Part shown: positions 5,250 to 57,357 of the stretch, in pieces
How positions within the stretch are numbered: the first letter of the stretch is position 1
Layout of the letters: the number at the start of each line of letters is the position of its first letter
Source: Eledone cirrhosa
Lineage: Eukaryota
Direction of reading: 5' to 3'
Length of the DNA: 64,000 nt
NCBI GenBank assembly: GCA_964016885.1
Contig: OZ024752.1
Span: forward strand, 6,882,001-6,946,000
The notes under the pieces: generated by a model
Seen by the model: only the letters and a program-made list of their open reading frames with translations
Databases searched by the model: none
What the model was told of the DNA's origin: nothing
Position numbers and translations under genes: made by a program

Positions 5250-5996
5250 GGGACAAGCTTTGACCTGAAGAAACTCCAGCCTAGAGAGACAACTCTACTT
5301 GCAACAAAAGGCTTCTTTCTCAAAATGAAGGGCTGACTATATAAACCTTGTTTTTAAATTGTTGTGCTTCATATTGTGAGTGGGTCGAGAATGCAGAAGA
5401 TTTGTGATGGCTGGAAATAAATGAAGCATGTATGCTCTACTGGACGTAGATAAATTGTAGAAGATATAAGCAAGCAATCAGATCGAAAGATTATAATTGT
5501 ACAAGCCGAAGCTGAAGCATATAGACAGTATGGCCCCACCCCCTTCCACTGTAAGGTGGTCGTGTAGGAGACAACAAAAAAAATCACCCAGTCCACACTG
5601 TAATGTGGTTGTGTAGGAGTCACTACAAAAAACACCCAGTCCACACTGTAAAGTGGTCATAAAGGTGTCACGACAAAAAATCACCCAGCCCACACTGTAA
5701 AGTGGTCATGTAGGAGACACGACAAAAAAAATCACCCAGTCCACACTGTAAAGTGGTTGTGTAGGAGACACGACAAAAATTCACCCAGTCCACACTGTAA
5801 AGTGGTCGTGTAGGTGTCACGACAAAAAGCACCCAATCCACACTGTAATGTGGTCATGTAGGTGTCACAATAAAAAGCACCCAGTAAACACTGTAAATGA
5901 GATTAGTGTTAGGAAGGGTGTCCAGCTGTAGGAACCAAGCCAGAATCAGTTCATGCTAGCGTGGAAGAATGGACATTAAACAATGATGATGTTGAT
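5250..5996 (+). mobile_element. Decayed RTE remnant plus 3' UTR with ~7 diverged 48-51-bp units (5545-5900)
   Basis: Degenerate LLATKGF/KGRLY/NEACML similarity to 14670-14830, then UTR units and a gatgat tail. Confidence 0.8.
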
Positions 5997-6032
5997 AAGT
6001 AAAAGATGGAAAGATTGACTGTAAAAACTCAC

Positions 6033-6152
6033 CATCAAATATTCCACTTTCTAATAGACTGCCGTTCTTCTCAAGGCTCATAAATTCTTCAGCAGTAAGA
6101 AATGTATAATGGACTCCATTTATTTCTCCTGGTCGAGGACACCGTGTCGTAC
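6033..6152 (-). CDS. MAGI: MAGI-family next coding exon, 120 nt, phase 1-1, GuK-like domain
   Basis: Not in the ORF track. Translates (C)TTRCPRPGEINGVHYTFLTAEEFMSLEKNGSLLESGIFD(G), the GuK motif TTRxPRxGExxGVxYxF...LLESG. Acceptor ttttctcaaatgttcttcag, donor gtgagt. T+GT across the junction gives the Cys codon. Confidence 0.93.
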
Positions 6153-6409
6153 CTGAAGAACATTTGAGAAAATAATCAAATTAATTTAGGGTTTTAAGAT
6201 AAACACTAAGTCAGTTACTGAAAAACTAAAGTTTCTTTTTTATGTTTAAGAAGAAATATTGGATAATAAATGATTAGAATGGGAGATAAAACATTTGTGG
6301 GCAATGAAATAGGTTGAGGTGATCCCAGTTGTATTTGGGGTACATGGTACTGTGAGTACCAGATTTGAGAGCTATTTTTAAAAAAATTGGGGCCAACATC
6401 AGGGTGGGG

Positions 6410-11990: not shown

Positions 11991-12370
11991 AAGATGACAA
12001 GTATGAAGAAGGTATAATTAGTTAGAAAAATGGATTCGCAATCGTGAGGTTGTGATTTCAATTCCAGGACCGGTCGATGCGTTATGTCCTTGAGCAAGAC
12101 ACTTTACTTCACATTCCTCCTTCTGCCTGGAGTTGCGACCGGTAGATAGTACTAGCAACTGGAAACACCAATGGAAACATTGTTTCCTCGGTCCGATTTA
12201 ATGAGCTCCACCTCACTCATTAATTGAATGAGGTCTTGGATCTTGTCGATCAACTATTGATCAATATATATATATATATATATATATTGAGTGCTTCCAA
12301 TCTATTGTAAAACTCATTCTTTGATTTATTCATTGAACCTTGTTTAACCTTTATATACATATATATATAT

Positions 12371-15154
12371 GCAAGAATCATTAAACTCAGACTAGTCCTG
12401 AATAAGACAATTACCACAATAATATCAGCTTACGCACCCCAATCGGGGCTGCCAGACGAACTTAAGGATAGGTTTTACGAGTCCCTAATACACACTACTG
12501 CTCTAACAGACGACAAGGACTTCCTAATCATTGCAGGAGATTTTAACGGACACGTAGGTAAACACTGCGACGGCTTCAATAGAGTACATGGAGGCCATGG
12601 AGTTGGCACAAGGAATGAGGAAGGATTCAGACTTCTAGAATTCTGCGACGCCAATGACATGTCGATATGTAACACAAACTTTAAAAAACCCGACAACCAC
12701 CTGATCACCTATAGATCAGGGGAGCACTCTAGTCAGTTAGATTTTATCCTCATCAGAGGACGTGACAGATGGACGGTCGTAAACACAAAAGCCTTCCCTA
12801 GTGAGGAATGTACATCCCAACATAGCTTAGTTGTCAGCGACCTCACGGTCAGAACTAGACGAGCCCTGAAACAGAGGCCAACCTGGAGAAGAAAGATCTG
12901 GAAGCTGAAAGTCCCCTCAACCAGTAACAGATTTAAAGATATTTTACTCAACGCCTACGACAGTAAAGAAGAACAGATAGAGACATTTAACGTAGAAGAG
13001 AACTGGGAGTTCCTAAAAAATAACTTACTAGAGGCGACGGATGAGGTTTGTGGCTGGAGTAAGACCTCAAGCAGGAGGAGAGTGACTTGGTGGTGGAACA
13101 ATAAGGTAGATGAAGCAGTCAAGGCCAAGAGACAGGCATGGAAAGAATGGAAGAACGGGGGGAGCAGGGTACATTACATAGAGACCAAGAGGGAAGCTAG
13201 GCGACAAGTATACTTAGCTAGGAGGGAAGCAGAGGATAGAAAATTCAAGCATGTTTTACAACGTGAGGACCAGAAACAGGAGGTATTCAAGATTGCGAGG
13301 CAGTGTGTCAGAGATAGTTGTGATGTCATTGGAGAGAAGTGTATCCGGAATGATAAAGGTGAGCTTGCCCTCACAAGTGCTGAGAAGAAAGATGCATGGA
13401 AGAGTCATTATGATAGATTACTAAATGAGGAGAATGCATGGGAAGAAGAGACCCTACCCCACGTAGACCCTATAGAGGGACCAGCAGTACAAGTCAGCGG
13501 CAGCGTAGTAAGTAAGGCAATCAGAGATATGAAGATAGGGAAGGCAACCGGTCCATCGGGTATAGCTGCCGAGATGCTGAAGGCATCTGGGTCTGTAGGT
13601 CACACTATAACCACACGTATCGTTAACCAGGTAATACTAGAGGGGGCCATACCAAAAGATTGGTGCAGTAGCATCATTGTCAACTGCTACAAAGGTAAAG
13701 GCGATGCACTAGATAGAGGAAACTATAGAGGTATAAAGTTGATGGACCAGGTCATGAAAGTAACAGAAAGAGTTATAGCACAGCTGATTAGGGACCGGGT
13801 GAATATAGACGAGATGCAATTTGGGTTTGTTCCAGGGAAAGGCACCACTGATGCGCTCTTCCTTGTGAGGCAATTACAGGAAAAGTACCTAGCTAAAAGT
13901 AAGCCACTCTACTTGGCATTTGTCGACCTTGAGAAAGCCTTTGACAGAGTTCCACGTGCAGTAATCTGGTGGGCTCTTAGAAAACTAGGAGTAGATGAAT
14001 GGCTTGTGAAAGCGGTACAAGCCATGTATAGGGGAGCAGTCAGCAAAGTTAGGATTGGCAATGAGTATAGCGAGGAATTTAGCGTACAGGTTGGGGTCCA
14101 CCAGGGCTCTGTTCTTAGCCCTCTCCTGTTCATCATAGTCCTGCAGGCAATAACGGAGGAGTTTAAGACCGGATGCCCATGGGAACTCCTGTATGCTGAT
14201 GACCTCGCACTCATAGCTGAATCTATGGTAGAACTAGAGAATAAATTCCAAACCTGGAAGCAGGGACTAGAGAGAAAGGGCCTCAAAGTCAACATGACAA
14301 AGACTAAGGTCCTTATAAGTAGACGAGAAAACAGAACCCAGATCCCCTCAGGGAAATGGCCTTGCTCAGTATGTAGGAAAGGTGTAGGTAGGAACTCCAT
14401 TCTTTGCCCCAAATGCAAACAATGGGTACACAAGAGATGTAGCGGGATCTCAGGAAGCTTAATTAAGAATGTAGGATTCACATGCAGCAGCTGTGCTGAA
14501 ACAGCAAGCAAACAGCCACAGGAAACAAGTACCACCAATCTCTGGGAGGGCCCTGTAGAAACAGTAGACAGCTTCTGCTACCTAGGTGACCGAATTAGCA
14601 ACGGAGGTGGGTGCTCAGAAAGTACAATAACTAGGGTAAGAACGGGATGGAAGAAGTTTAGGGAACTACTACCACTGCTAGCTGCAAAAGGCTTCTCCCT
14701 CAGAATGAAAGGCAGACTGTATGATGCGTGTATCCGAACAGCGATGTTGCATGGTAGTGAGACCTAAGCGCTGAAGGTGGAAGACTTACGTAGATTAGAG
14801 AGAAACGAAGCCTGCATGCTCCGATGGATGTGTAACAGTAATATACGTGAACGACAAAGCATAAATGAATTGAGAGAGAGACTGAGCATAAGAGGAATCA
14901 AATGCTGCGTGCAGGAGAGGCGGTTACGCTGGTATGGACATGTGATGCGTATGAAGGATGACAGCTGCATAAAAAGGTGCAGAGCACTAGAAGTTGATGG
15001 AAACCGCGGAGTGGGGAGACCCAAGATGACTTGGGATGAGGTGATAAAAGCCGACCTTACCCAACTACACCTCTCAAAGTCAATGACACACGACCGTGAC
15101 TTCTGGCGTCACGCAGTAATACAGGGTACCCGATCTCCCATGGGTACATGCTGA
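12371..15154 (+). pseudogene. RTE endonuclease/reverse transcriptase ORF with one premature stop
   Basis: ORF-track 12659-14767 and 14777-15154 share a frame, which is open upstream to the truncation point. Confidence 0.9.
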
Positions 15155-18633: not shown

Positions 18634-18835
18634 GGGCGGTGGATTGGCAGAATCAGTAGAGCGTCGGACAACCTGCTTTGCAGCACAGAGTTATGGCCCT
18701 TTGTGATCTGAGTTCAAATCCTGCCGAGGTTAAGTTTGCCTTTCATCCTACAGGGACAATAAAACAAAGTACCAGTAATACACTGGGGTCGATTTAATCA
18801 ACTTTGCCATACCCTAAAAATTGTAAAAACCATTA
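18634..18835 (+). mobile_element. tRNA-derived SINE with Deu/Nin-like core
   Basis: Head ggcggtggattggcagaat, B-box gagttcaaatcc, core gcctttcatcct...aaagtaccag. Confidence 0.8.
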
Positions 18836-19147
18836 TTTAATATATGTATAGTATATTTGGCAATATACCGTATGTTTAATTAAAAACATTTAGAAGACCT
18901 TGCGCTATCATTTTTAAAGTAGTGACTATGTCACTTCTTTTTTCGGCAAAAGAAGGGAGAGAAGCTGACAGATTCTGTTTTTAATTAAACATACGGTATA
19001 TTGCCAAATACACTATACATACATTCATATATACATCACTATTTCAGAGCACCAATCCTAATTTTTAATTTTTGCTGGACCGGCAATCGCTCTGTATAAT
19101 CAGTTCCTGATTATTACTGGAATTCTATAAGAATCCAGCCTCTATAA

Positions 19148-19240
19148 TTTTTGGCAGAGGCGGGGAGTACGATGCTCTGAGGATCGCCAACAGCGTGAAA
19201 CAGAATCTGTCAGCTTCTCTCCCTTTTTTTGCCGAAAAAA
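19148..19240 (+). ncRNA. Type I hammerhead ribozyme (predicted), cleavage after GUC at 19209-19211
   Basis: GTAC-GATGCT-CTGAGGA-T-CGC-CAACA-GCG-T-GAAA-CAG-AAT-CTG-TC-AGCTTC. Core CUGANGA/GAAA/UH is complete. Long stem I (tttttggcagaggcggggag with ctcccttttttt-gccgaaaa) has a TAC bulge. The base of stem II is U-U rather than G-C. Confidence 0.8.
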
Positions 19241-19307
19241 GAAGTAAGTGACAGTCACTACTTTAAAACTGATAGCTTATGGTCTTCAAAATGTTTTTAA
19301 TTAAACA

Positions 19308-20627
19308 CAGTATATTACCAAATATACTGTGCATACATTATATTACCAAATATACTGTGCATACAGTATATTTGGTAATATACTGTGCATACATTATATT
19401 ACCAAATATACTGTGCATACAGTATATTACCAAATATACTGTGCATACATTATATTACCAAATATACTGTGCATACAGTATATTACCAAATATACTGTGC
19501 ATACATTATATTACCAAATATACTGTGCATACATTATATTACCAAATATACTGTGCATACAGTATATTTGGTAATATACTGTGCATACATTATATTACCA
19601 AATATACTGTGCATACAGTATATTACCAAATATACTGTGCATACATTATATTACCAAATATACTGTGCATACAGTATATTACCAAATATACTGTGCATAC
19701 ATTATATTACCAAATATACTGTGCATACATTATATTACCAAATATACTGTGCATACATTATATTACCAAATATACTGTGCATACATTATATTACCAAATA
19801 TGCTGTGCATACATTATATTACCAAATATACTGTGCATACATTATATTACCAAATATACTGTGCATACAGTATATTACCAAATATACTGTGCATACATTA
19901 TATTACCAAATATACTGTGCATACATTATATTACCAAATATACTGTGCATACATTATATTACCAAATATACTGTGCATACATTATATTACCAAATATACT
20001 GTGCATACATTATATTACCAAATATACTGTGCATACATTATATTACCAAATATGCTGTGCATACATTATATTACCAAATATACTGTGCATACATTATATT
20101 ACCAAATATACTGTGCATACAGTATATTACCAAATATACTGTGCATACATTATATTACCAAATATACTGTGCATACAGTATATTACCAAATATACTGTGC
20201 ATACAGTATATTACCAAATATACTGTGCATACAGTATATTACCAAATATACTGTGCATACATTATATTACCAAATATACTGTGCATACATTATATTACCA
20301 AATATACTGTGCATACATTATATTACCAAATATACTGTGCATACATTATATTACCAAATATACTGTGCATACATTATATTACCAAATATACTGTGCATAC
20401 ATTATATTACCAAATATACTGTGCATACAGTATATTTGGTAATATACTGTGCATACATTATATTACCAAATATACTGTGCATACAGTATATTACCAAATA
20501 TACTGTGCATACATTATATTACCAAATATACTGTGCATACAGTATATTACCAAATATACTGTGCATACAGTATATTACCAAATATACTGTGCATACAGTA
20601 TATTACCAAATATACTGTGCATACAGT
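19308..20627. repeat. 28-bp minisatellite, ~47 copies, ca(g/t)tatattaccaaatatactgtgcata
   Basis: Direct inspection. The unit contains a 9-bp stem hairpin. Confidence 0.95.
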
Positions 20628-20707
20628 CATGTATACATCGCTATTTAAGGGCACCAATCCTAATCATTAATTAATAATTTTTAATGTAAGTAATGGTTAT
20701 CATTACA

Positions 20708-20900
20708 GGCAGTGGATTGGCAGTATCGGTAGAGGATCAGACGCCATTCTTTTCAGCACAGAGTTACGGCCCTTTGCATTCTGAGTTCAAATCCCGCCGA
20801 GATTAACTTTGTCTTTCATCCTTACGGGGTTGATAAAATAAAGTACCAGTAATACACTGGGACAATTGCTGGCCTTGTGCCAAAAGTAGAAACAATTATT
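20708..20900 (+). mobile_element. tRNA-derived SINE with Deu/Nin-like core
   Basis: Full match to the family, ending gtagaaacaatt. Confidence 0.85.
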
Positions 20901-48219: not shown

Positions 48220-48618
<399 letters not shown>

Positions 48619-53562: not shown

Positions 53563-53866
53563 TATCAAAAGATATTCAAACAAAACAAAACCTAAATATA
53601 TATATATATATACACACACAAATATACACACATACACATACATATATATACACAATGATTTTATTTGTGTTTAAAGTCTGCAATTGTCTGGACAAAAGTA
53701 AAGTGAGAAGACTTGGAATATGGGGGGTGGGGTTCTTATTTGTCCTACATTCATCAAGATGGCGACACAGTGGAATCTGTTTAGTCTTGTATTAGTTTAA
53801 TGGTAATTCTGAGGGCAAGTTTCTTTGTCCTTCCTATGTAGTCTTTGTTACAACCTTTACACTTAA

Positions 53867-55083
53867 TCCTTTAGCATTTAAACTGGTCATATCCAGCTAA
53901 AATTCTCATCTTTTTCTGTTCAAACCAGCCATAACCAGACAACCAGCGACTCATACTGACATTAAGGTATTGTTCCCAAAATAAATAATAACATCATTAA
54001 AATCTCATAGATTCCATATTATGTGAAATAAAAACCTTAAATACAATAGTATATATAGAGTAATGTAAATGTTATGTGAGATATTATGTGAGGTAAAGCC
54101 TTTACTGTGACAATACAATAGTATATATAGAGTAATGTAAATGTTATGTGAGATATTATGTGAGGTAAAGCCTTTACTGTGACAATACAATAGTATATAT
54201 AGAGTAATGTAAATGTTATGTGAGATATTATGTGAGGTAAAGCCTTTACTGTGAAAATACAATAGTATATATAGAGTAATGTAAATGTTATGTGAGATAT
54301 TATGTGAGGTAAAGCCTTTACTGTGACAATACAATAGTATATATAGAGTAATGTAAATGTTATGTGAGATATTATGTGAGGTAAAGCCTTTACTGTGACA
54401 ATACAATAGTATATACAGAGTAATGTAAATGTTATGTGATATTATGTGAGGTAAAGCCTTTACTGTGAAAATACAATAATAAATATAGAGTAATGTAAAT
54501 GTTATGCGAGATATTATGTGAGGTAAAGCCTTTACTGTGAAAATACAATAGTATATACAGAGTAATGTAAATGCTATGTGAGATATTATGTGAGGTAAAG
54601 CCTTTACTGTGAAAATACAATAGTATATATAGAGTAATGTAAATGTTATGTGAGATATTATGTGAGGTAAAGCCTTTACTGTGAAAATACAATAGTATAT
54701 ATAGAGTAATGTAAATGTTATGTGAGATATTATGTGGGGTAAAGCCTTTACTGTGAAAATACAATAGTATATATAGAGTAATGTAAATGTTATGTGAGAT
54801 ATTATGTGGGGTAAAGCCTTTACTGTGAAAATACAATAGTATATATAGAGTAATGTAAATGCTATGCGAGATATTATATGAGGTAAAGCCTTTACTGTGA
54901 AAATACAATAGTATATATAGAGTAATGTAAATGTTATGTGAGATATTATGTGAGATATTTTGTGAGGTAAAGCCTTTACTGTGAAAATACAATAGTATAT
55001 ATAGAGTAATGTAAATGTTATGTGATATTATGTGAAGTAAAGCCTTTACTGTGAAAAAGCAATAGTAGTGTAGTGTAAATGTT
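53867..55083 (-). mobile_element. piggyBac-type MITE with the same 72-bp array, inverted (54016-55060, ~14 copies)
   Basis: TTAA-tcctttagcatttaaac terminus. The array is the reverse complement of the one at 40607-42092. Confidence 0.85.
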
Positions 55084-55662
55084 ATTTTACCAAAACCAAA
55101 GATGCCGACATGTTGACAGAATCTTCAGTAACAATTATAGACAGGAACAGCTACAACTCAGAGCTAACAATACACTCAATCATTATAAAAGAATATATTA
55201 TACAATGGAATCAGAAATAGCAGTGCATTGACGAATTTGAAAGATGTTTTTTTTTAGACACAATCAATGTAATTCACAACACCTGGTGGTACAAACTAAT
55301 GAGAAACTGAAGATAATCAACTCACCCAAAAGAAATATTTCAATACAACAAATTAAAACCCCTTCAAAAGAGCTAAAATGTACTCCAATGCCTCACTACC
55401 CTAACTACAATGAACTACACAATGATATTTCACACTTCTGTAGAGAATTATGCATAGCAGAAGAATTATTTGATAAGGAAAACAGAGATGAATTAAATAT
55501 TAAAATAAAAGTAGCTACAAACCAACAAAAGGTAGGAATAAAACATTGAATTTTGTGACTGTGTATCCACCTTCCCATACAACAAACTACGACATCCAAT
55601 ATCAGTTGAAAGGAATGGGAAGTTATCCATGAACTCAAAAATATTAAAGACATTGTTATTAA

Positions 55663-55770
55663 CATTTAACACGTTGTCGGCGACACATTGCGACAGTAGA
55701 GTAATCTCCCCTTAATACATAATGCAGTGTCAAGGGAAGTAATTCATAAAGAAATTCAGTGTGCTAAAGG
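55663..55770. mobile_element. 108-bp TTAA-flanked MITE inserted in the Penelope RT
   Basis: TTAA at 55659 and 55771. Removing it restores VIKEVDKGSA. Confidence 0.8.
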
Positions 55771-55935
55771 TTAAGGAAGTGGATAAGGGAAGTGCTACTA
55801 TAATATGTTGAACACTACAAAAATGTATTATTTCTATTAAAAGACAACACCTATTATGAAAAGGTAAACAATTACCAACAAAAACGATGTCAAAACTAAA
55901 CACACTCATTCACTAACATTAATAAGATGTAACAA

Positions 55936-56040
55936 CAAAGCCGAGGTTAACTTTGCCTTTCATCCTTACGGGGTCGATAAAATAAAGTACCAGTAATGTA
56001 CTGGGTATTTGATGGCCTTGTGCCAAAAGTAGAAACAATT
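55936..56040 (+). mobile_element. 5'-truncated SINE with 15-bp TSD
   Basis: aataagatgtaacaa at 55921 and 56041. Confidence 0.9.
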
Positions 56041-56198
56041 AATAAGATGTAACAAACAAAGAATCTAACTACCTAAATCATTTTGAATGAAAACTATCAA
56101 TTTTTTTGGTCGCCCTAAAATCCAACGATGTCTGTAAAGAGTCAGCTTTAACTTGTATAAACATACCCCCCCCCCCCCCAAGAATCTTAAGATCCATT

Positions 56199-56480
56199 GT
56201 AGCAAACCTCAATGATGAAAGACAGACTCAGTAGCAAGCGTCAATGATGAATCACAGACTCAGTAGCAAGCCTCAATGATGAAAGACAGACTCAGTAGCA
56301 AGCGTCAATGATGAATCACAGACTCAGTAACAAGCCTCAATGATGAATCACAGACTCAGTAGCAAGCCTCAATGATGAAAGACTCAGTAGCATGCCTAAA
56401 TGATGAATCACAGACTCAGTAGCAAGCCTCAATGATGAAAGACTCAGTAACAAGCCTCAATGATGAAAGACAGACTCAGG
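56199..56480. repeat. 32/28-bp minisatellite, ~9 copies, within the Penelope RT
   Basis: Unit gtagcaagcctcaatgatgaa(tc/ag)acagactca. Confidence 0.9.
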
Positions 56481-57357
56481 AGCTTATACTAGTGAAACCA
56501 CTTTTAAAATACACACCAAGTTTTATAAATGATGGCCTGGATCTGTTAAACCACCTCCCTAAACCCCATTAACAGAGAAACTACTACTGTACCATTAAAC
56601 CTCTATACTATGATCCCACATCAATAGGGACTAGAGGCAATAGGATTCTGGTACGAAAAATTCCCTAATGAACTTCTAAACAGAATAGAAAAATGTTTCA
56701 TCACCGTAGGATTAAAATAATAATTTTGACTTTAATGGCAACATTTACAGACAAATACCTGAGACTAGGATGGGTACAAAAGTAGCTCTGACTCATCATG
56801 ACACACATAGAGGTCCAAATATATGAACTATGCAGATTTAAATACAACTTTAGACTTCCATAAATAGTTACTAGAAAACTGGAAACGTTACTTAAATGAC
56901 TGCATAATTCTGTAGACACATATCTTTGATTTCAAATGCATATGACAAATGCAACCTTCGACCTCAGAGGTATGGTAGATTCTTTAGGGAAAAAATAGTG
57001 TTTTCAATGCAGACAAATACAGTACATTACTAAAACACCTCAAAAATCTTTTATTATTTCCAAAATTATTTGAAAATTGTAAGCAGTGCCCTTCATTAAA
57101 AATGTAGTAACAAGAGGGTGAACAAAACAGAAGAGACAATCTGGATCTGCTTTCAAGAATAAATCAAATCATTAGATAAAAATCAACATTAGATTGGTTC
57201 AGACATATGGCCATGTTTTAATCTACCCTCATACCCCCCCCCCCTACCTCACTTGATTGCTGATTATCAAAATGTTTATGTAAGAACAGCGTTCCTGTTT
57301 GTATATGCATGAGGATGTTTACATTACATGAAATTTTGTGTGTGCAGTTGCATATTC

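Follow-up and report, generated by a model that had tools for sequence, protein, structure and literature searches.

The non-LTR retrozymes of coral, mussel and axolotl (PMC7229834, PMC7761336; here and below, papers are cited for the passages available) are tandem copies of a low-GC unit of about 300 bp that has no open reading frame and carries a type I hammerhead ribozyme. One of them, the axolotl HHR_Amex2, has a U-U mismatch at the base of helix II; its monomer cleaves to 22% in 1 h and its dimer does better (PMC7229834). A link between retrozymes and the Penelope-like elements (PLEs) is a proposal of 2020, for which a 2026 preprint on vertebrate retrozymes (bioRxiv 10.64898/2026.07.22.740005) argues from homology: these co-occur with Neptune-type PLEs, and monomers, dimers and multimers are mixed; one of nine predicted dimers cleaved, and no mollusc is named among the sampled groups in the available part of the text. 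The Neptune/Nematis and Naiad PLEs (PMC8557442, PMC4209133) form partial tandems with an inverted 5'-truncated copy and a tail of 30-40 bp at one end--the signature of these elements (PMC8557442)--in (TA)n targets, which Naiads prefer, and have a hammerhead upstream of the 3' end; the U3-A8 variant of the hammerhead core is found in Schistosoma Cercyon.

The family described here, from the genome of Eledone cirrhosa, is like the metazoan retrozymes in its hammerhead, its small low-GC unit and its tandem copies; like the vertebrate retrozymes in its mixture of lengths and its company of PLEs; and like the PLEs in all of the features just listed, the U3-A8 core included. It differs from the first in consisting mostly of dispersed insertions with inverted arms and two fixed ends in (TA)n targets, and in that circle and cleavage are here predicted. 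The vertebrate link to PLEs is co-occurrence plus homology to a pseudo-LTR, whereas here it is the anatomy of insertions, and no homologous pseudo-LTR was found among the PLE loci compared. Unlike a PLE, the unit has neither reverse transcriptase nor endonuclease, and in place of the minimal hammerhead type it has a full one, whose stem I is long and whose stem II has 4 bp. Our search of the literature, within the library consulted, turned up no description of a cephalopod retrozyme or of this footprint in retrozymes, and the family may be catalogued in Repbase or Dfam; a squid genome paper counts 235 Rfam hammerhead matches, in the part available without analysis (PMC6962438). Earlier publications cover the retrozyme class, the U-U at the base of stem II and the U3-A8 core.

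The locus lies in a stretch of 64,000 nucleotides, referred to as the window, whose + strand holds one full 316-bp unit at 18977-19292 (unit coordinates u1-u316, u1 being 18977). The period of 316 bp claimed in a first-pass annotation is there, as are its four hairpins (at 19096, 19117, 19247 and 19308; the two at 19096-19138 are short and lie upstream of the ribozyme). At 37% GC, with no ORF longer than 32 aa (the longest that starts with ATG), the unit falls within the range used to recognise retrozymes (150-450 bp, <45% GC, ORF-less). No reading frame for a reverse transcriptase or a GIY-YIG endonuclease was found in it.

A complete type I hammerhead occupies 19167-19217 (+), and all of the parts named beforehand can be located by sequence match: the loop-1 strand GUAC (19167-19170), the 5' strand of stem I (19171-19176), the core CUGAGGA (19177-19183), stem II as UCGC-CAACA-GCGU with a U-U at its base (19184-19196), GAA (19197-19199), stem III as ACAG-AAU-CUGU (19200-19210), C17 at 19211, directly 3' of which the cut is predicted, and the 3' strand of stem I with one U-U (19212-19217). 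CUGAnGA, GAAA and UH are thus present in type I order with three helices. The stem I of about 25 bp that had also been claimed appears in the minimum-energy fold of 19148-19239 as a long distal extension (z -1.7, with 9 of 200 shuffles equally good), along which compensatory changes are found across subfamilies. Loop 2 is CAACA in 199 of 210 pattern-selected copies and loop 1 mostly GU(A/G)C, a layout that may resemble the tertiary-contact arrangement of the Schistosoma hammerhead. The window hammerhead is confirmed as a genuine ribozyme fold, predicted to self-cleave after C17.

Thermodynamic prediction and library search give a different view of the same stretch. The whole unit folds with z -2.7 (0 of 100 shuffles match it); the hammerhead junction is absent from the predicted minimum-energy fold, and forcing the active fold of the window copy costs 3.3 kcal/mol relative to the ensemble (medians across the 12 commonest ribozyme classes range from 1.7 to 9.4 kcal/mol). 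Three Rfam scans returned hairpin-type chance matches only; neither the window copy nor, at E up to 0.5, any of 20 sister loci matched a hammerhead model. The covariance-model check that the first-pass annotation had set for itself accordingly came out against it. An Rfam match is a library criterion rather than a mechanistic one; with none in hand, the case for a ribozyme rests on the family, and there covariation outweighs the negative scan.

In 85 aligned copies (a subset of the 210, with related copies counted as independent) 86.5% of cells are paired, against 82.2% in shuffled alignments (0 of 500 as high) and 26-50% in slid controls, and double changes number 81 against 29 in shuffles (0 of 500); two further measures of covariation fail to beat the shuffles (42/500 and 262/500). 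Both partners have changed in each of the four stem II pairs, though for one pair this is seen in just one copy. Among the 210 pattern-selected copies the second pair is C-G in 141 and U-A in 56, the third A-U in 147 and G-C in 46, and the base pair A-U in 106, U-U in 93 and G-C in 8. The U-U that had been entered as a caveat is indeed present on the + strand of the window copy; read as decay it does not hold up, because 93 of 210 copies share it and mismatched ribozymes that cleave are known, which makes it an amplified subfamily trait. Pair 6 of stem I is G-C in 95 and U-A in 83 of 198 parsed copies, and distal stem I covaries too (54 copies). Stem III keeps ACAG...CUGU around a loop of 0-5 nt, with no double changes among the 85 copies; in two versions it is perfectly palindromic, a form linked to cleavage as a dimer.

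The core itself covaries. Pair 3-8, counted by hand in the first 100 of 1130 matches to one core pattern, is C-G in 54, U-A in 40, C-A in 3 and U-G in 3; in a class with 403 matches it is U-A in 97 of 100. A tree built without the ribozyme columns splits U3-A8 between two lineages, with 3 changes where shuffles need at least 13, and the swap probably arose twice, to judge from these alignments. (A technical note: a single origin of U3-A8 was tried and is weakly rejected, with p-AU 0.039 for a quick tree of 77 of 145 copies and 187 columns; a faster test of the U3-A8 clade gave a smaller p, but on 2,000 replicates and 53 rows.) Repeated compensatory changes imply selection on the RNA fold, and on this comparative evidence the hammerhead is a selected RNA fold, the core covariation being the strongest sign of it.

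These variants have counterparts. The natural covariation to U3-A8 is active, and U10.1-U11.1 is the best tolerated mismatch, in a study of natural hammerhead variants (PMC3088659); both changes are described there, while here they segregate as subfamilies of one element. The A-A and C-A stem II bases of some putative ribozymes of this family are without precedent in the literature consulted. They belong to the subfamilies at L327-L356 (the class with 403 exact matches), which combine a U3-A8 core with a covarying stem I and a palindromic stem III, and which have spread with the same two 3' ends as the rest. Several other hammerhead families in the genome share the U-U stem II base, and two PLE families carry U3-A8.

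How large is the family? A search of the 3.0-Gb genome with the unit yielded 2,961 first-look candidates, the best 39 others being 90-94% identical. Four core patterns have 534, 1141, 1130 and 403 exact genomic matches, each with 0 for the reversed control (1141 are cores with a 5-nt loop 2 and 1130 cores with a 6-nt loop; the 403 are a further class, with slight overlap with the 1130). Exact core matches number about 2,600, more than chance would give; other copies that retain the core, whose absence would have counted against the first-pass annotation, are present. Two words from the body of the unit have 1954 and 2568 exact matches (reversed controls each 0); the second is exact in 63 of 159 core-bearing copies, so that about 6,500 copies should hold that segment, a rough figure, biased toward young copies and best summarised as 6,500 or more. 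Among 66 copies chosen without regard to the ribozyme, the core is a perfect C3-G8 one in only 27, and of the U3-A8 form in a further 12. Most copies are dispersed insertions of 0.5-2 units; tandem units occur at 22 loci, with dimers in several subfamilies, and arrays exist of at least 8 units and of 3+2 units (L381, L387). Tandem multimers and covariation in stems I and II, both among the proposed checks, were found. The proposal of a remnant of a retrozyme family is borne out by the thousands of ORF-less copies, the tandem dimers and arrays and the covarying hammerhead; the adjustment to make is that dispersed short insertions prevail over satellite-type arrays. By its genome-readable features this is likely a family of the metazoan non-LTR retrozyme kind.

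The insertion at this locus has three parts. The full unit is preceded by an inverted, 5'-truncated arm (18843-18980, - strand; u222-316 plus u1 to about u45-49), which lacks the catalytic core because it begins inside stem III, and whose outer end is close to the short 3' end of the family. It is followed by a second, partial unit, u1-u86 (19293-20664, +), which stops at the long 3' end and has no second ribozyme. The window copy thus has one end of each kind, short and long, and a single complete ribozyme, as the first-pass annotation had said. The second unit is stretched by a 28-bp minisatellite of 47 copies (19307-20625, +), its u14-u41 hairpin grown in place; in some of the repeat units the hairpin loop stands in reversed orientation. 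Neither the inverted arm nor the hairpin origin of the array figured in that annotation. A candidate target-site duplication of 12 bp brackets the whole (18831-18842 and 20665-20676, +), its copies alike at 11 of 12 bases, AT-rich, and a single case. The insertion stands between two copies (18635-18787 and 20708-20861) of a repeat that is common and dispersed; they are 83-87% alike and, by resemblance, probably SINEs.

In 82 insertions picked by their core alone, two clusters, u47-66 and u84-93, take in 104 of the 119 outer 3' ends; the alignments overrun by a few bases into the TA target, which puts the true ends near u50-57 and u86. The 3' end is thus fixed at two sites some 30 nt from each other, and each arm has one of them. 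Inverted pairs make up 37 of the 82 insertions (26 with both ends in the clusters, 11 with an end elsewhere), and 22 of the 26 have one end of each kind (p 5e-4), counts that treat kin copies as independent and include two loci, L112 and L113, that resemble one duplicated insertion. A second set gives 16 of 18, with 9 of 27 having an end elsewhere, and the U3-A8 class has the same two ends. (TA)3 follows 51 of 54 long ends, against a background of 9.6%, and most insertion flanks are microsatellite. An inverted PLE locus in the same genome (L074) is built likewise from a short end plus a tail about 40 nt longer. This anatomy is a PLE footprint, and suggests that PLE-type enzymes copy the unit.

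The reading preferred here, to which we assign a probability of roughly 0.6, is that the locus is one insertion of an ORF-less 316-bp non-LTR retrozyme, copied from a unit-length RNA circle by a PLE reverse transcriptase together with its GIY-YIG endonuclease. A source locus with at least two units would be transcribed (such loci are seen; their transcription is presumed). Its hammerheads would excise one unit, possibly aided by the pairing of two palindromic stem III regions, and the unit would be ligated into a circle, as in other retrozymes. A PLE endonuclease would open an AT-rich or (TA)n target, and each strand would prime cDNA at about u50-57 or u86. Copying would run back through the closed cut site, often for more than one unit and with variable stops, and the two cDNAs would join head to head. 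A fuller version, which we hold tentatively and at slightly worse than even odds, has the PLE reverse transcriptase primed by both strands of a cut (TA)n target on one and the same small ribozyme circle, where the two priming sites are fixed and some 30 nt apart, and makes of the family a natural mutational series in which a single body carries about a dozen amplified versions of the hammerhead, among them two C3-G8 to U3-A8 swaps of independent origin and A-A or C-A bases of stem II that still spread.

Is the template really a circle? The most serious competitor, unlikely on balance but well short of negligible, keeps the element and the PLE enzymes and replaces the circle with a linear, incompletely cut multimer (or with jumps between linear RNAs), the hammerhead trimming some transcripts. 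From a downstream anchor, 71 of 100 copies reach at least 40 nt upstream, beyond the cut site, and only 3 of 100 end there (the reference units omit the U3-A8 subfamilies, and some extents may be short); a pile-up of 5' ends at the cut site was accordingly not found in either count (5/125 and 3/100). Such read-through implies a template RNA with an intact junction, not a linear RNA with a ribozyme-made 5' end. (Another 22 of the 100 go no further than 25 nt from the anchor and end at the 3' arm of long stem I, possibly where a polymerase stalls.) Within a locus the two arms differ by 5.1%, while one locus differs from another by 14.7%, or by 6.6% if their class is the same (33 loci); the arms share ribozyme class in 22 of the 33 (11% expected), so that both come from the same subfamily and possibly from the same molecule. 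Read-through, lengths above one unit (46 of 82 core-bearing insertions) and the similarity of arms are most simply accounted for by a circle. The first two fit an uncut multimer equally well, and further observations keep the linear multimer in play: adjacent tandem units resemble each other no more than inverted arms do (median divergence 7.7% at 22 loci vs 5.5% at 50; p 0.21), units of long arrays are 9-15% apart, and one tandem dimer (L380:1648-1998) joins two ribozyme classes, C3-G8 with a 5-nt loop and U3-A8 with a 6-nt loop, as either a template switch or a snapshot of a transition; one circle alone would not produce this. The weak predicted folding of the monomer in several classes points the same way. 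Against the multimer, potential sources are scarce: two same-strand ribozymes occur in just 4 of the 82 core-bearing insertions, while more than half exceed one unit. Two units at L378 are 0.7% apart and have a private change in common, and circles have been shown for the coral, mussel and axolotl retrozymes (PMC7229834).

The unit might instead be the pseudo-LTR of an unsampled autonomous PLE, its copies being truncated ends. PLE termini do bear hammerheads and yield the same footprint, and of 57 Xenopus retrozyme families 24 have a match in Repbase, where 21 of the 22 matched elements are PLEs (bioRxiv 10.64898/2026.07.22.740005). The genome has 10,596 GIY-YIG candidates, and long RT-CxxC-GIY-YIG frames of the Neptune/Nematis layout; comparison of the unit with 50 of these loci (30 + 20) found no PLE that shares it, a coverage that leaves this reading some room. 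It is nevertheless improbable. In the sampled copies and listed junctions what lies upstream of u1 is u316, the inverted arm or unrelated flank, never a common longer body. Four PLE proteins compared with 60 element loci and the window gave no collinear case, and a PLE frame lies within 1.5 kb at only 1 of the 60, on the opposite strand. The PLE hammerheads here are minimal types of other sequence. Descent of the unit from an old pseudo-LTR is another matter, and may have occurred.

Other hammerheads of the genome deserve mention in their own right. Two Neptune-like PLE families (L032:2190-2240, L061, L062, L072) have minimal hammerheads in the 3' region, with a U3-A8 core and a palindromic stem III; at L032 the element adjoins a PLE end with (TA)n between. 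Open PLE frames of 938 and 1096 aa stand at L061:3809-6622 (-) and L063:775-4062 (+), and frames of this length mean that candidate partners may be young. Another hammerhead family (L066, L070, L079, L162, L176, L252), unrelated to the 316-bp one, combines a U-U at the base of stem II with a stem III whose loop is long; it too forms inverted pairs that end in (TA)n, here with some 65 nt between the two ends. A likeness of u120-160 to another family's hammerhead, seen by eye, was dropped for want of BLAST support.

Less probable still is that the unit is a satellite or a SINE which a LINE mobilises, or which multiplies by recombination at the DNA level, with the ribozyme incidental. A LINE reverse transcriptase frame in the window, the arrays and the growth of a minisatellite inside the window copy would suit it. 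The unit has no B box, with one loose match to an A box, there is no A-rich tail at the listed copy ends, and the repeated compensatory changes speak of an RNA fold under selection. Copies that are circularly permuted, have two fixed ends and carry inverted arms do not belong to the known LINE pattern. That the hammerhead is a chance resemblance, as the empty Rfam scans and an active fold that is not the minimum-energy one might suggest, can be set aside, given stem and core covariation across many subfamilies, of which that at pair 3-8 excludes it in practice.

The element sits in an intron of about 42 kb between two consecutive MAGI exons: an upstream one in a frame at 48385-48618 (-), assigned by motif match, and the next, with the guanylate-kinase-like domain, in a frame at 5959-6180 (-), whose best solved match is MAGI2 (E 7e-10). 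With MAGI exons on the minus strand on both sides, the ribozyme is antisense to MAGI, as had been proposed; the MAGI-sense arm has no core, so that MAGI pre-mRNA would stay uncut. The window copy shows no sign of an effect on MAGI. Having one ribozyme only, it could not release a circle, and it would be an inert dead end that makes at most one cut in an antisense transcript. The same intron holds the LINE frame, of 818 aa, with endonuclease, reverse transcriptase and PHD finger (12311-14764, +), and decayed PLE fragments (reverse transcriptase and endonuclease pieces) lie at 53630-56930, upstream of the first MAGI exon found.

For the enzyme that mobilises animal retrozymes, co-occurrence and homology are still the arguments on offer (PMC7229834, PMC7761336 and the 2026 preprint, in the passages available). 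With hundreds of sampled copies showing inverted arms and ends that are fixed and asymmetric, the PLE hypothesis and its circle-template step can be put to a direct test with a substrate of 316 nt. If two-site priming is true, it would be a direct genomic footprint linking animal retrozymes to PLE enzymes, and would account for the one-sided "tail" of PLEs as well. The subfamilies, for their part, offer a natural series on how much change a hammerhead core tolerates while it supports transposition.
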